This document shows positions 24,684-50,433 of a DNA stretch of 64,000 nucleotides, piece after piece. Made by a program: the position numbers and the translations under genes. Under the pieces are notes generated by a model that was not told where the DNA came from, did no database searches, and was given only the letters and a program-made list of their open reading frames with translations. The stretch's first letter is position 1. The number at the start of each line of letters is the position of its first letter. Source of the DNA: a virus (taxonomy: Duplodnaviria; Heunggongvirae; Uroviricota; Caudoviricetes); IMG/VR virus record IMGVR_UViG_2565956719_000002. One strand, given 5' to 3'.

Positions 24684-24700
24684 ATTGCTCTAATGAATTT
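24684..24700 (+). promoter_or_regulatory. C1-operator-like 17-mer upstream of antirepressor module A
   Basis: ATTGCTCTAATGAATTT, 16/17 to consensus; about 320 bp upstream of the coupled leader ORF. Confidence 0.5.
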
Positions 24701-28354: not shown

Positions 28355-28388
28355 ATAACTTCGTATAATGTATGCTATACGAAGTTAT
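28355..28388. other. loxP recombination site
   Basis: Exact ATAACTTCGTATA-ATGTATGC-TATACGAAGTTAT. Confidence 0.97.
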
Positions 28389-28431: not shown

Positions 28432-28448
28432 AGAATTATTAGAGCAAT
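28432..28448 (-). promoter_or_regulatory. C1-operator-like 17-mer facing cre
   Basis: Minus strand ATTGCTCTAATAATTCT, 15/17. Confidence 0.5.
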
Positions 28449-29089: not shown

Positions 29090-29941
29090 ATGATAAATTA
29101 TGTCTACGGCGAACAACTGTACCAGGAGTTCGTCAGCTTCAGGGATCTCTTTCTAAAAAAAGCTGTTGCACGCGCCCAACACGTTGATACAGCCAGCGAC
29201 GGTCGTCCTGTACGCCCGGTTGTCGTTCTACCGTTCAAAGAAACTGACAGCATTCAGGCTGAAATTGATAAATGGACTTTAATGGCGCGGGAACTGGAAC
29301 AGTACCCAGACCTCAATATCCCAAAGACTATTTTATATCCAGTGCCTAACATCCTTCGCGGTGTGCGTAAGGTTACAACTTATCAGACAGAAGCTGTGAA
29401 CAGCGTCAACATGACCGCTGGCCGCATTATTCATCTGATTGATAAGGACATTCGCATCCAAAAAAGCGCGGGGATCAATGAGCACAGTGCGAAATACATA
29501 GAGAACCTGGAAGCAACAAAAGAGCTAATGAAGCAGTACCCGGAGGATGAAAAATTCCGTATGCGTGTACACGGCTTTAGCGAAACAATGTTGCGCGTCC
29601 ATTACATTTCCAGTAGCCCTAACTACAATGATGGTAAATCAGTTAGTTACCATGTGCCGCTGTGTGGTGTGTTTATCTGCGATGAAACTCTCCGTGATGG
29701 AATCATCATCAACGGTGAATTCGAGAAAGCAAAATTTAGCCTTTATGACTCCATAGAACCGATCATCTGCGACCGCTGGCCGCAAGCAAAAATATATCGC
29801 CTGGCAGATATTGAAAATGTAAAAAAACAAATTGCCATCACTCGCGAAGAGAAAAAGGTTAAGTCAGCCGCATCAGTTACGCGCAGCCGTAAAACCAAGA
29901 AGGGGCAGCCAGTAAACGACAACCCCGAAAGCGCGCAATAA
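29090..29941 (+). CDS. c1: C1 repressor of lysis
   Basis: 283 aa beginning MINYVYGEQLYQEF; size, start and context match P1 C1 as recalled; GGAGG upstream. Confidence 0.75.
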   Translation: MINYVYGEQLYQEFVSFRDLFLKKAVARAQHVDTASDGRPVRPVVVLPFKETDSIQAEIDKWTLMARELEQYPDLNIPKTILYPVPNILRGVRKVTTYQTEAVNSVNMTAGRIIHLIDKDIRIQKSAGINEHSAKYIENLEATKELMKQYPEDEKFRMRVHGFSETMLRVHYISSSPNYNDGKSVSYHVPLCGVFICDETLRDGIIINGEFEKAKFSLYDSIEPIICDRWPQAKIYRLADIENVKKQIAITREEKKVKSAASVTRSRKTKKGQPVNDNPESAQ

Positions 29942-31626: not shown

Positions 31627-31643
31627 CAATTTATTAGAGCAAG
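31627..31643 (-). promoter_or_regulatory. C1-operator-like 17-mer upstream of antirepressor module B
   Basis: Minus strand CTTGCTCTAATAAATTG, 15/17; about 315 bp upstream of leader ORF B. Confidence 0.45.
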
Positions 31644-44807: not shown

Positions 44808-45536
44808 TTATTCCTGAATGCGCTTAAACTCGATTACCCACACCCAGGGATTAGCGTTCCAGCTTTCTTCACCATAGATGGATTCCCACAGGCGCTGGAA
44901 CGCAACCTTGGCCATTGCGAAATCCCCCTTGGGAGTAAGGAATGTTCCCGGGTGATCAGGAAGCAAACTTCCAGCAGGCGGAACGCCCTCAGCCCTTGCA
45001 TCGCATTCGCTGATATCGTTCAACCGTTCAACGCGCACGTTGGTAATTTCCAACAGAATGCGTGATGCCCATCGCGGCATGTGAATTGATGGACGCCACC
45101 CACCATCAAACTTTTCATTCACAGTGTGAGGTTTCCAGTCGGCATCATCGGGTATCGACCATAAGCCGTAATCACCAGGTTTTTGCTCGCAACTGGCCCG
45201 ATAAATCCTTGCTGCGTTCTTCTCATCGCCACGACAAAGGTTGTCGTTCCAGTCCACACTGCAACCATCCTCATTGCCTAATATCGCCCATGTTTCACGA
45301 ACCCAAATTCGATCGCCGACGATACCAAAGGGGCAATTGAAAACACTGCTTACACCATCAGCCCCGTACCACTGAAAACCTGCACCAATTTCCCTAACCA
45401 TCACTGGTGCTTCTGGACCAACTTCCGCAGGCTGATTTTTCATTATCCGCCGCGTCTGCGTTTTCCTTCCTTCGAGGATGGCTCGGACCATCTCATCGTT
45501 GAAAATCATGCCGCGCTCTTTCACTTCGCCTTTCAT
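44808..45536 (-). CDS. Hypothetical protein
   Basis: 242-aa ORF preceded by an operator-like box. Confidence 0.5.
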   Translation of the reverse strand: MKGEVKERGMIFNDEMVRAILEGRKTQTRRIMKNQPAEVGPEAPVMVREIGAGFQWYGADGVSSVFNCPFGIVGDRIWVRETWAILGNEDGCSVDWNDNLCRGDEKNAARIYRASCEQKPGDYGLWSIPDDADWKPHTVNEKFDGGWRPSIHMPRWASRILLEITNVRVERLNDISECDARAEGVPPAGSLLPDHPGTFLTPKGDFAMAKVAFQRLWESIYGEESWNANPWVWVIEFKRIQE

Positions 45537-45714
45537 GCATCCCCCTTACCCATGCGCGACGATGCCGCCAAAAGTGATAGAGAACAGCCAGAAATAGATC
45601 GCGGCCATAATGATTTTGAATGCCGTGTTCATATTTTCAGCTCCTGTGATTGATTGGATACATGCCGCGCCTTACGGCATGTTTTTATTTTCACTTTCTC
45701 TGTTTTAAAAATCA

Positions 45715-45731
45715 AGATTTATTAGAGCAAT
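45715..45731 (-). promoter_or_regulatory. C1-operator-like 17-mer
   Basis: Minus strand ATTGCTCTAATAAATCT, 16/17. Confidence 0.5.
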
Positions 45732-46237
45732 TATTGTTGATGTAGAAGCGCGTTTTCATACTCCCTGACCATTAACGTAAGTACGCCGTGACTCCTGAAA
45801 ACACGCGCCACTTCAATCTTATCTTCCAGCGCGAACGCAATTTTACTTAGACCAATTTTCTTCAGGAGATCAATCTTTGCTGGACCGTCATTTCTGTCAT
45901 CGGTGGCAGGACGCATAGATAGCAAAGGCTCCGCCCCATTTGTTACGTGCTTACGCAACCAGGCTCGTGTTTTATCCCTGGCTATCTCACAGCGCCCGGT
46001 TACAAACCAGAGGGTGTAAATGCCGGACAACTGGCGCACCATATCAATAACTGGAGTGATGGGAGCATCAGTGTCACAGGCAAGGTTAAACTCGTTCCAG
46101 TGCTCTGTTAATGCACCTTTGCCAGGTGGTGGAAGTAAATGCAGCCTGTCTTCCGTTGCCTCTGATATCGTCCCATCAATATCTACTATGACGATGTACG
46201 GACGTTCCTGGTGTGCGTGTTTATTGAAAATACTCAA
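45731..46237 (-). CDS. HAD-superfamily phosphatase-like protein
   Basis: 168 aa with N-terminal VIVDIDGTI (DxDGT) motif. Confidence 0.5.
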   Translation of the reverse strand: MSIFNKHAHQERPYIVIVDIDGTISEATEDRLHLLPPPGKGALTEHWNEFNLACDTDAPITPVIDMVRQLSGIYTLWFVTGRCEIARDKTRAWLRKHVTNGAEPLLSMRPATDDRNDGPAKIDLLKKIGLSKIAFALEDKIEVARVFRSHGVLTLMVREYENALLHQQ

Positions 46238-46310
46238 ATGCCCTCCTCATTGGACGAAAAAAAATGCTGGTGGGAGCACTCCACCAGCATTAAAAGTGAC
46301 ACTGTAACTA

Positions 46311-47573
46311 TCAGCGAACGTAAATAGTGCCGCCGTTCTCTTTTTCCCATGCATCGCTACGTGCATAGCAAACATCGAGAAGTCTTCTTGCCGCAGTTTC
46401 CTCTAAACCCAATTCGACAACCAACTGCTCATGACGGCGGGTAACCACATCAAACAGGGTATGCAGCCCTTTAGTTGCCAGATCATCAATGAATTCCGGT
46501 TCGAACGGCAGCTCTGCATCTGCCAACATAACCTCTTGCGCCCACTCAACTCGACGGACCAATTCCGGGCGACGGCTTTCCATCTCTTTACAGATCAATT
46601 CATGGAAGAACTCTACCCAACCTTCCGGCTGGAACTCGCGGAAAATTGCCAACGGCTGGAAGTTTGGCATCAACCATTCGTTGATTCGGATATCAATGGC
46701 ATAGCCCATGTCGCAGCAGAACTGATAAGCAAAGTCCAGCTTAGAAACGATATAAGGACGCTCGTTATTGAACTCTTTAGGCGATGAGATCCCATAAGCC
46801 AGGAGGCGCGGGAAGAAGGAGATTTGCCCTAACGTCGGATGAAGTTTGCTTGCAGGGAAACGGCGCTCAGTAATGCCATACATTTCCTTCTTGAGCGTCG
46901 CAAATTTGGCATTCTCATTAACCAGCGCGGTAACCTCTGCTTTTTTATTAGCAAATGCCACGCGCGCCTCGCTTGCATCTTTAATAGTTTTTTTGAGCTG
47001 TTGGTTAAGGTCGGCGACCTGCTTACGCAGTTCCTGTCGCTCGCTTTTAGCTTTGTTATAGCGTTTCTCAAGGTTAAAAGGATCAAGTTTCATGATCTCT
47101 TTATATTGAGATTTTAGCGTTGAAATCTGTGAGTTCCGCAGTTCAACCATCGCAGTCATTTCATTGAGTTTTGTTTCCAGCTCAATGCTTATACGTTCGG
47201 CATTATCAGCACGCTGGTTGGCGTCATGCGTCGCATCGTCGATCGCGTCCTGTTGCTGGCGTTTCAAATGTTCAATTTGCAGCTGAAGCTCTTCAATTTC
47301 TTTACCCTTCAGACCGAGATCCAACTGCATATTTTCAGCTGCATCTACCAGGGAGTTATGGCTATCAGCTTCTGCGTTATAAACATCAATAAGCTGTGCG
47401 TGAAGCATCTCCGCTGACTGAACCGCATTATCAAAAAAACGCGCTGTGAGGTCATCACAACTAACGCGGCGTTGCGCGGCCCGGATGTTCTGGATAATGG
47501 CCGGGATACCGGCATTCAGGACGTCAGGGATAGATACATTTTCGATTGATTGTTTTTGTGCTGAAGTGCTCAT
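46311..47573 (-). CDS. Coiled-coil protein
   Basis: 420 aa, long heptad-rich N-terminal half, globular C-terminus. Confidence 0.5.
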   Translation of the reverse strand: MSTSAQKQSIENVSIPDVLNAGIPAIIQNIRAAQRRVSCDDLTARFFDNAVQSAEMLHAQLIDVYNAEADSHNSLVDAAENMQLDLGLKGKEIEELQLQIEHLKRQQQDAIDDATHDANQRADNAERISIELETKLNEMTAMVELRNSQISTLKSQYKEIMKLDPFNLEKRYNKAKSERQELRKQVADLNQQLKKTIKDASEARVAFANKKAEVTALVNENAKFATLKKEMYGITERRFPASKLHPTLGQISFFPRLLAYGISSPKEFNNERPYIVSKLDFAYQFCCDMGYAIDIRINEWLMPNFQPLAIFREFQPEGWVEFFHELICKEMESRRPELVRRVEWAQEVMLADAELPFEPEFIDDLATKGLHTLFDVVTRRHEQLVVELGLEETAARRLLDVCYARSDAWEKENGGTIYVR

Positions 47574-47574
47574 T

Positions 47575-47793
47575 TCAAAGTTCCGTATTAGCTTGTGCTT
47601 CGGTCATTTTTCCTAAGTATGAAGGAGGAAGGACTACGCAATTTGTATCCAGTCCCTCACCTATGGCAGCCTGTAAAATTCTGGCTAAGGTGAGTCTCTT
47701 GTTGCGATACCTGGTGATGACATGCCTGATACCGCCGGTCGGCGTAACAAAGGCGATCAGCCAGTAGTGATATTTCCGTCGGAATGGCCACAT
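47575..47793 (-). CDS. Hypothetical small protein
   Basis: 72-aa ORF. Confidence 0.3.
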   Translation of the reverse strand: MWPFRRKYHYWLIAFVTPTGGIRHVITRYRNKRLTLARILQAAIGEGLDTNCVVLPPSYLGKMTEAQANTEL

Positions 47794-47807
47794 AGTGCAC
47801 CTTGTAG

Positions 47808-47824
47808 ATTGCTCTAATAAAAAA
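47808..47824 (+). promoter_or_regulatory. C1-operator-like box
   Basis: ATTGCTCTAATAAAAAA, 14/17. Confidence 0.4.
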
Positions 47825-47845
47825 CGTGATGAGTGTACATCACGT
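47824..47845. terminator. Perfect palindrome flanked by A- and T-runs (bidirectional terminator candidate)
   Basis: ACGTGATGAGTGTACATCACGT. Confidence 0.5.
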
Positions 47846-47856
47846 TTTAAAAATAT

Positions 47857-47873
47857 GGAATTATTAGAGCAAT
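47857..47873 (-). promoter_or_regulatory. C1-operator-like box
   Basis: Minus strand ATTGCTCTAATAATTCC, 14/17. Confidence 0.4.
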
Positions 47874-47874
47874 A

Positions 47875-48576
47875 TTATTCTGATTCTCGCTCAAAAAATG
47901 AGCTGATAAGGGGAAGCCAATCCTCTGACACTTCGCGAGGTCGCGGTTTGCCGTGGAAAAAGATTATTCGGCAGTCTTTTGGTAATGCCCCATTCCCCCT
48001 GGAGTAACGCGCGCTCGCATATTTTGAACCAGGTTCCACAACATCGGCCTTGTAACTTACAAACCATCCTGGATACAGATCCTGAAATGCTGGTGTATCA
48101 TCGCCCATAACCTTTCGTAAGAACCCCTGGTCACCCCAGCACTCAGTAGTGACACAACGAGAAATCCAACCTTCCGGATCTTGCCAGAATGAACTCCAGA
48201 TATGCGCTTTAACACTATTTGGTATCCACAGGGCACCGCTGCCACGATATTGTGGATGGTAAAAATCCCTAAGCATGGTGAAGCTGGTTGGTGGATGCTC
48301 TAGGATTGGGCGTATATCACCGGCAATAACCGTGTCCAAATCCAGATAGAACAGATCATCGGTTATATCCGGTCGGAACAACTCGATTTTCGCCCACCAG
48401 CCACGGCACTTTTGCCACTGGTTGATCAATGGGACAACTTTGACGCCAGGTACATGTAAACGCTTCAGGTCTGTCAGGCAAATAATTTCATAGCCTTTTG
48501 GCAGTTGATTAACCAGCCACTGCACATCGGAAGCGTTATAGTCACCACCAGAGCGAAAAACTAAAGCAATCTTCAT
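47875..48576 (-). CDS. Putative glycosyltransferase (GT-A-like, DxD motif)
   Basis: 233 aa; [13 protein letters not shown]-terminus and [11 protein letters not shown] acidic motif. Confidence 0.4.
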
Positions 48577-49265
48577 GCTGCACCATCACCTTTCACTTTC
48601 ATCAATGTCAGGTTTCCGCAAAATACGGCACCAGTGTCGATATACTGCTGATTCCAGAATGTCTTCGGGCTTTTCACCGGAGTGTGGCCAAAGATAAAAC
48701 GATCTGCGCCCGAAATTTCGCCACCAATATCATCCATCGAATCACTGATACGCTCGCGCGCCCAGACAACGTTGAAAAGCGGTACCTCCTTACCGAATTG
48801 GTATTCATTATCCGGATAGTCGGCATGGGCTATAACGATAGTTTCTTGCCCGGTGTTCAACTCAATGATATAGGGCAGACGCTTTACCAGCTCCACCAGC
48901 GCCCAGGCTAATATTTCCTGATCAGTGTCCAGCATGAAGAACCATTGTCCGCCATTCATTAGCCAGTTATTCACGTTGCCATCTGGACTTAACGCATCAA
49001 TCATCAGCCGCTCATGGTTCCCCATCACTGCCCTGAACCAGGGCATCTGCAATAGTTCCAGACATTCGACATTTTCAGTACCGCGATCGATAAGGTCGCC
49101 GACCGATATCAGTAAATCCTGCGCCGGGTCAAAATCCACACGATGGAGTTCGGACATCAGTCTGGTGTAGCAACCATGCAGATCACCAACAACCCAGACA
49201 TTCCTGTATTTGGTACCGTCGATACGGTGATAAATTGAGGGTGCCATCATGTATTCTTCAGCCAT
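48573..49265 (-). CDS. Ser/Thr protein phosphatase (lambda PPase family)
   Basis: 230 aa; VVGDLHG, GDLIDRG, GNHE metallophosphatase motifs. Confidence 0.8.
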
Positions 49266-49873
49266 TCTTTAAGAGTCATCTGCGGAATACCTCCCATTTT
49301 CCCGCATGAAACAACGTCAATCCGTTCACGCGCAGACTGGAATAACAAAGGCAGGTGACTTAGATTTTTTGGCGTGCCGCCGGAGTGAACGCGTGGTTCT
49401 TGTGTAGCGTCAACGCCCACCAGGGCGACATGTTTGAATCCGATATGGAAAGCCAGGTTCAGAGCACCATATGCACTATTGCCGCTGGCAATTTCATTCT
49501 CATCTTCGCAAAGTCCGAAATGTGCGGACCAGCGCCACGCCCACCACTCGGGAGAATTCGTATTTTTTGGCTCCATGCCACGTTCAGCCACACGACGGAA
49601 GCACAGAACGCCGTCTCTGACTTCACGTTCTTTAACATCGGGTAGTGCCATGCAATAACAAACACCACGGCGACGGCGGCCACGACCAACGCGCCGCATA
49701 TTGTCTGGCGATGGATCAAGTGTGAAAAAATAAGAAGCGCGGTTCAGCCAGTCGATGGCCCCATTGACCGCTATAATCGGCACTCCGCGCGGCGCAACAA
49801 AGTTTGCGGCGCTTGGGCCACTGCCGACGATAATAACGCGATCACTGCCTCTAAATTTATTCTTGGGAAACAT
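49247..49873 (-). CDS. Hypothetical protein, paralog of 49771-50433
   Basis: 208 aa; shared VGSGPS...IAVN...NSG..A..LA...G...V.LVG.D motifs; start overlaps upstream gene by about 100 nt. Confidence 0.45.
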
Positions 49874-50433
49874 TGAATTGCACTGCTCCTACTTGCATTC
49901 AAAATATGTAAATCTGCGTGTTTTTTGCGGGTATCCAGGAACTGCTGTTGCCATTTTGAAATAGACACCTGCGTTGGATTCCGTAGGGCTTGAGGGTGCG
50001 CGCCATGCCAATGAAGGCCGTTTTGCAGAGAACAGTCATAGCCGACTAATACCACTACTTCAGCCCCTGATTCAGCAGCCAGACTGATAGCCTGCGCGCC
50101 GCTATTTACCCCTTCCGCCGGTCCACAATATCGCCTGTACTCCAACGAAAATGATTTCGCCGCCGCCAGGTTGGCTGTCACTTTGCGGAATCTCCCTCCC
50201 GGTATGGTGGATCCGTATTGCTTCCACCATGACAAATCACCGGCGTATAAGGCATAAATGTCATCGAACATCTGCCAGGAATTGTTAACCGCGATGATTG
50301 AACAGCCAGTTTTTTCTATAGCAGCACAGTCCTCACGAGTGAGTGACGGACCGCTACCGACACAAAAAACAGTCCTAGTCGCCCTGGGTGGTATGTTCAT
50401 TCTCAGCTGCAAATTCAGCCTCCAGGCGAGCAT
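49771..50433 (-). CDS. Hypothetical protein, paralog of 49247-49873
   Basis: 220-aa ORF (shorter start near 50400 possible). Confidence 0.45.
   Translation of the reverse strand: MLAWRLNLQLRMNIPPRATRTVFCVGSGPSLTREDCAAIEKTGCSIIAVNNSWQMFDDIYALYAGDLSWWKQYGSTIPGGRFRKVTANLAAAKSFSLEYRRYCGPAEGVNSGAQAISLAAESGAEVVVLVGYDCSLQNGLHWHGAHPQALRNPTQVSISKWQQQFLDTRKKHADLHILNASRSSAIQCFPRINLEAVIALLSSAVAQAPQTLLRRAECRL

Follow-up and report, generated by a model that had tools for sequence, protein, structure and literature searches.

The window, that is, the whole 64,000-nucleotide stretch of DNA that was analysed, belongs to a P1/P7-type phage-plasmid, with a region identity of 99.5% to P7 and 99.0% to P1. The element studied here, a segment of 66 bp at 47808-47873 (ATTGCTCTAATAAAAAACGTGATGAGTGTACATCACGTTTTAAAAATATGGAATTATTAGAGCAAT), is identical in the window and in the P1 (AF234172) and P7 (AF503408) records; 118 IMG/VR contigs as well as 686 PLSDB plasmids carry it. 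It sits between pmgQ/hdmD and pmgR/shtA, both on the minus strand, as are all genes across 44808-50433; on its 5' side lies a string of abutting or overlapping genes, the last of which is pmgQ/hdmD, and on its other side pmgR, which was reported to be essential in P1 (PMC10695390). The genes and operators concerned are as follows:

47875-48576, minus strand: pmgQ/hdmD, 233 aa, glycosyltransferase-like, last gene of the upstream operon, stop codon at 47875-47877
47857-47873, minus strand: C1 operator OpmgRa (former Op86a; Op(sht[a]) in P7), ATTGCTCTAATAATTCC, recognized by its consensus match and by the protein_bind annotation in AF234172/AF503408
47808-47824, plus strand: C1 operator OpmgRb (former Op86b; Op(sht[b]) in P7), ATTGCTCTAATAAAAAA, recognized by its consensus match and by the GenBank annotation
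47575-47793, minus strand: pmgR/shtA, 72 aa, first operator-controlled gene, Shine-Dalgarno AAGGTG at 47803-47798
46311-47573, minus strand: pmgS/shtB, 420 aa, second gene of the pmgR-pmgS unit
29090-29941, plus strand: c1, an ORF of 283 aa for the C1 repressor, the stretch being annotated in the matching records as repressor protein C1 / c1

A Pfam search with C1, PmgQ, PmgR, and PmgS returned no match. The two oppositely oriented operator-like boxes described in the earlier note are real and correspond to C1 sites annotated in the P1 and P7 GenBank records. They contain perfect inverted copies of a 13-nt sequence, ATTGCTCTAATAA, at 47808-47820 and 47861-47873 and, taken as 17-mers, each agrees with the consensus for P1 C1 operators, ATTGCTCTAATAAATTT, in 14 of 17 positions, the mismatches all falling in the 3' tail (consensus, and the figure of 22 operators for P1, from PMC8546580). 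With up to three mismatches allowed, the window contains 15 copies of this consensus where 0.31 are expected; none of 100 shuffles reached 15, and the cognate repressor gene c1 is present in the window together with its operators. The P1 record AF234172 describes the boxes as monovalent C1-controlled operators and adds 'controls expression of pmgR and pmgS'. The boxes are P1-type C1 operators, an identity that is taken from the GenBank records. OpmgRa begins 1 nt past the pmgQ stop codon and is kept in all relatives compared, and the core of OpmgRb is in relatives either invariant or variable only at operator position 5 (C/T). The operator centers are 49 bp apart and the span from operator to operator is 66 bp in nearly all versions. 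The pair does not form a bivalent operator of the Oc1ab type, as the boxes are 32 bp apart (47825-47856) and do not overlap into an incomplete palindrome of approximately 28 bp.

Other C1 sites of the window show features of their own. Two overlapping and opposed operator matches at 61705-61732, one of them a perfect consensus, are of the bivalent Oc1ab type, unlike the separated OpmgRa/OpmgRb pair. The loxP site (ATAACTTCGTATAGCATACATTATACGAAGTTAT) at 28355-28388 and c1 at 29090-29941, with three operator matches between them, make up the immC region of the prophage. The operators at 28432-28448 (minus strand), 45715-45731 (minus), 47857-47873 (minus), 24684-24700 (plus), and 31627-31643 (minus) have 5-6 T in a row starting 3-4 nt past their end (e.g., ...TGATTTTT), and Op88 (45715) shares with OpmgRa the layout ATTGCTCTAATAA-N10-TTTTTAAAAC; the T-run could be an operator extension, a bend, or a sign of shared module ancestry. 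Downstream of Op88, the leader contains a hairpin at 45660-45682 (ACATGCCG...CGGCATGT) whose T-run is confined to the plus strand, while the genes run the other way. Between Op88/OpmgT and a 242-aa ORF lies an unlisted ORF of 28 codons (45546-45632, minus strand), which encodes the hydrophobic peptide MNTAFKIIMAAIYFWLFSITFGGIVAHG and is preceded by a CAGGAG ribosome-binding site; the P7 stretch viewed carries no annotated feature at this place.

Two hairpins of the locus, one between the operators and one behind pmgS, bear on how the genes are transcribed:

47821-47848, minus strand: hairpin AAAACGTGATG-TACACT-CATCACGTTTT, followed by TTATTAGAG, which completes T6ATT (47824-47816); recognized by inverted repeat, fold, and covariation
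46263-46291, minus strand: hairpin and T-run (AATGCTGGTGG...CCACCAGCATT, -17.6 kcal/mol) directly after the pmgS stop codon; recognized by a custom terminator scan

Between the two boxes, a perfect 22-bp palindrome had been described in the earlier note. The 22-mer, ACGTGATGAGTGTACATCACGT, is indeed present at 47824-47845, but it consists of 8-nt arms around a 6-nt center, AGTGTA, that is not self-complementary; the inverted repeat proper has the 11-nt arms AAAACGTGATG and CATCACGTTTT, at 47821-47831 and 47838-47848, and a nonpalindromic 6-nt loop. The A- and T-runs mentioned with it are found as A6 at 47819-47824 and T4A5 at 47845-47853. The window hairpin folds with -13.4 kcal/mol on either strand (z = -5.9 on the minus strand and -4.8 on the plus strand, relative to shuffled sequences), and 4 of its 11 stem pairs are G-C. 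Its sequence occurs only once in the window, a ground on which a reused protein-binding motif was rejected, and Rfam returned no family for the element, the one hit being a chance miRNA match (19.6 bits vs. a gathering score of 211).

The hairpin has the anatomy of an intrinsic terminator because it lies 27 nt past the stop codon of the co-directional pmgQ and is followed by a U-tract; on the minus strand, the 11-bp stem (-13.4 kcal/mol) runs directly into U6AUU, for which the A6 tail of OpmgRb is the template. A custom terminator scan found the site on the minus strand only, the plus strand failing, and a standard promoter/terminator scan returned nothing at the site because the stem, when extended through A-U pairs, absorbs the T-run. 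Rho-independent terminators are among the mapped features of P1 (PMC8201110), and the P1 RNA-seq literature gives no transcript ends for the pmgQ-pmgR locus. In the approximately 11 kb of AF234172 that were viewed, no terminator feature is annotated, even at strong hairpins, so that the absence of one here says nothing on whether this terminator has already been described.

Which strand makes use of the hairpin was addressed by comparison with relatives. The sources were the 118 IMG/VR contigs, Cronobacter phage JK004 (PmgS 69.5% identical), and contigs with PmgR homologs 72-84% identical, and they gave 24 distinct 66-nt versions that align without gaps. A search of genome contigs with PmgS yielded two near-identical Escherichia coli loci only, and the divergent relatives were obtained through PmgR homologs. 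Two stem pairs show fully compensatory changes, in seven sequences each, one from G-C to A-U and the other from A-U to G-C (CGTGATG/CATCACG to CATGGTG/CACCATG), and many one-sided stem changes also occur among the 24 versions. Over all versions, 96.2% of the stem cells are paired when read as minus strand vs. 88.3% when read as plus strand, with 12 vs. 6 extra pair types, figures for which shuffle controls overstate significance as the relatives share descent. The non-Watson-Crick stem cells on the minus strand comprise 21 G:U vs. 3 A:C, the latter from three singleton variants; counted by hand as independent events, these reduce to about 11 G:U vs. 3 A:C (one-sided binomial p ~0.03). RNA-level pairing is thus kept on the transcribed strand through compensatory and G:U changes, as is expected of an intrinsic terminator. 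The folds differ accordingly: three G:U-bearing relatives give -14.5 to -18.2 kcal/mol on the minus strand vs. -5.8 to -11.0 kcal/mol on the plus strand, where the hairpin loses pairs to A:C mismatches, and a fourth relative with an all-Watson-Crick stem gives near-equal values (-15.1 and -14.0 kcal/mol). After the minus-strand stem comes, without exception, T6ATT or CT5ATT; the plus strand shows no U-tract in relatives, and its tail in the window, UUUUAAAAA, offers only U4A5. In one relative (L138; ENA ERZ27235605 k119_98014), the stem in the 66 nt upstream of its pmgR has been swapped to CGGCATG/CATGCCG in a shifted register, and it still abuts T6, which is retained along with both operators and the loop (TATCAT). 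This natural stem swap supports a function at the RNA level.

These observations bear directly on the possibility that the site works as DNA, either through a dimeric protein bound to the dyad or through a contact between C1 molecules across 49 bp that loops or wraps the promoter, the RNA hairpin being then incidental. The nearly constant 66-bp operator span would suit such a site, and the compensatory changes preserve a dyad symmetry that a dimeric DNA binder would also need. C1-mediated looping is reported for operators of the P1 c1 region. However, a protein bound to the duplex cannot explain why G:T is confined to one strand, the register-shifted L138 stem replaces the dyad with one of a different sequence, and a center-to-center distance of 49 bp is short, which makes a C1 loop less likely; we consider the DNA-level explanation improbable, although a dyad or C1 loop may act in addition to the RNA hairpin, given the constant span. 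Because a double-stranded DNA site cannot give such a strand bias, the hairpin is best read as an RNA hairpin of the minus strand. Taken together, the data indicate that it is an intrinsic terminator of the pmgN-pmgO-pmgP-ppp-pmgQ (hdm) operon, operating on the minus strand only, the termination itself being what we infer from the sequence. With so few G-C pairs in the stem, termination may be partial.

The second hairpin, after pmgS, is stronger than the one between the operators. Of eight relatives checked, five keep it, with covariation; among the remaining three, at least two have another operator directly after pmgS. This hairpin looks like a terminator that would close the pmgR-pmgS unit. 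Flanked in this way by terminators, pmgR and pmgS need a promoter of their own in the region of the two operators, and the operators most likely bracket one such promoter, two C1 monomers on either side of a single promoter being a simpler reading than a loop or two promoters. Two positions come into consideration for it:

47844-47872, minus strand: PpmgR, sigma-70 promoter predicted in GenBank (AF234172), with -35 TTGCTC at 47872-47867, a 17-nt spacer, and -10 TAAAAC at 47849-47844
47832-47837, minus strand: candidate -10, the loop hexamer TACACT, with -35 TTCCAT at 47860-47855 and a start near G 47825

With a simple sigma-70 weight matrix, neither stands out in the window: the annotated PpmgR scores 6.05 and the loop promoter (TTCCAT-17-TACACT) 5.66, both at chance level, as approximately 450-560 positions per strand score as well as these candidates. 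The annotated -10 is not conserved, being replaced by TGAAGC, TGAGGC, or TGCGGC in relatives, and some P1-type variants have TGAAAC or TAAAGC at this position, both compatible with G:U pairs in the stem. In the loop, T1, A2, and T6 are invariant in all 24 distinct versions and positions 3-5 vary (TACACT, TACGCT, TATCAT, TATTAT). The top-scoring site of the transcribed strand uses the loop as its -10 in each of the nine divergent relatives, with values of 8.1-9.9 (scores of 9.35 or more are reached at only 24-28 positions per 64-kb strand), and the -35 paired with it, TTTACT, TTTCAA, TTTTAA, or TTCATT, lies just inside the tail of OpmgRa. We therefore put forward, tentatively, that the true -10 is the hexamer of the terminator loop and that the annotated -10 is misplaced. 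The annotated promoter stays viable for P1-type phages because the Op88 region of P1 repeats its TTGCTC-17-TAAAAC layout. An Lpa-dependent late promoter was also considered and rejected, the -22 box of LP26 (AAATGACTA) being unlike the hairpin and no late promoter being annotated at the locus.

The place of the promoter matters for another explanation, in which transcription would start 5' of the hairpin, so that the hairpin and its U-tract would belong to the pmgR leader and act as an attenuator, stopping the majority of transcripts in the absence of an antitermination or coupling signal, or would serve as a stabilizing 5' stem. The distance to the pmgR start codon, 23 nt from the hairpin and U-tract, is typical of leader terminators, and strand-specific RNA pairing fits a leader hairpin as well as it fits a terminator at an operon end. 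Such an attenuator nevertheless has little chance of being correct: no promoter-like site that would start upstream of 47848 exceeds the chance level in the window or is kept in relatives, the start of the annotated PpmgR would itself fall within the loop, OpmgRa abuts the pmgQ stop codon and leaves no room for a further promoter between pmgQ and the hairpin, and the folds showed no alternative antiterminator pairing.

The earlier suggestion of a bidirectional terminator between two repressor-controlled promoters holds in so far as the hairpin is terminator-like, but its bidirectional part does not, since the genes are all on the minus strand and the U-tract (U6AUU) is on that strand only, and its two-promoter part fails for want of a plus-strand promoter at a conserved position. 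That two opposed C1-controlled promoters, one per operator, should face each other across such a terminator is very unlikely, for although the window hairpin is equally stable on both strands, with an A-run on one flank and a T-run on the other, the TTGCTC in each operator core resembles a -35, and four relatives carry TTG(C/T)TC-16-GATAAT on the plus strand (score 7.3), the best plus-strand site changes position between relatives and scores only 5.7 in the window, the flanking genes are co-directional so that a plus-strand transcript would only be antisense to pmgQ, and the plus-strand hairpin is weakened in the wobble-bearing relatives and followed by no U-tract in any relative.

We consider it likely that the element is the control region of pmgR-pmgS (shtA-shtB in P7), in which inverted C1 operators surround a promoter and an intrinsic terminator; the positions of the features, their conservation, and the strand-specific pairing are observed directly, and the promoter position and the geometry of repression are what we infer from them. 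In this arrangement, the monomer-type operators OpmgRa and OpmgRb, inverted and with their variable tails pointing inward, would enclose a leftward sigma-70 promoter of the minus strand, and the intrinsic terminator would lie within the same 28 bp between them. Transcripts of pmgN-pmgO-pmgP-ppp-pmgQ would form the 11-bp hairpin and end in the U6AUU templated by the A-rich tail of OpmgRb. Transcripts from the internal promoter would start in or after the hairpin, near 47825 with the loop -10 or near 47837 with the annotated one, and would escape the terminator because with either -10 they lack its 5' arm. In the lysogen, C1 at OpmgRa would cover the -35 side, and OpmgRb would span about +2 to +18 with the loop -10 or +14 to +30 with the annotated one, so that the promoter would be shut from both sides while the terminator would stop read-through from upstream. 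Once C1 is inactivated, pmgR-pmgS would be transcribed from their own promoter, and with the second terminator after pmgS they would constitute an insulated and separately repressed unit.

A more compact arrangement is possible, if somewhat on the doubtful side, in which the same few nucleotides would have a dual role: as RNA, the hairpin would terminate the upstream operon; as DNA, it would provide, in its loop, the -10 of the next promoter; and the template of its U-tract would be part of the downstream operator. If so, transcription would start just past the loop, facing the T6 run, and the transcripts would escape termination; C1 at OpmgRb could both prevent promoter clearance and, as a roadblock, strengthen termination; and the GenBank promoter assignment would have to be corrected, the whole forming a very compact terminator-promoter-operator insulator.

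The operator pair is already known, its entries in the P1 and P7 records being two decades old; assigning the hairpin to one strand and possibly moving the -10 are minor refinements, of small importance outside P1 biology. The comparison adds the strand on which the hairpin would act, the view of pmgR-pmgS as a terminator-insulated and separately repressed unit, and the suggestion that the -10 is misplaced. A possible use lies in correct operon boundaries for P1 phagemid engineering and for P1 transcriptomes.

With respect to known systems, OpmgRa/OpmgRb (Op86a/Op86b) of P1 and Op(sht[a])/Op(sht[b]) of P7 are the same element, with the same sequence and position; in the stretches viewed, the P1 and P7 records differ from our reading in having no terminator feature here and in taking TAAAAC, not the loop, as the -10. 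The closest parallel for the promoter is the established c1 promoter-operator Pc1/Oc1a of P1 (P99a/Op99a), in which a monomer-type 17-bp operator likewise overlaps the -35 with its 3' tail, and in which the -35 and the -10 lie at operator columns 15 and 39, close to those of the proposed loop promoter (columns 14/15 and 37, relative to OpmgRa). Oc1a, however, is one half of an overlapping bivalent operator, whereas here the second operator is separate, inverted, and 32 bp away on the transcribed side, with a terminator hairpin in between. With the Rho-independent terminators of enterobacteria and their phages, the hairpin shares a stem-loop followed by a U-tract, a place after a co-directional stop codon, and a stem kept by compensatory and G:U changes. 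It differs from the usual ones in that its stem is A-U-rich and the template of its U-tract doubles as an operator, and in that its loop may double as a -10.
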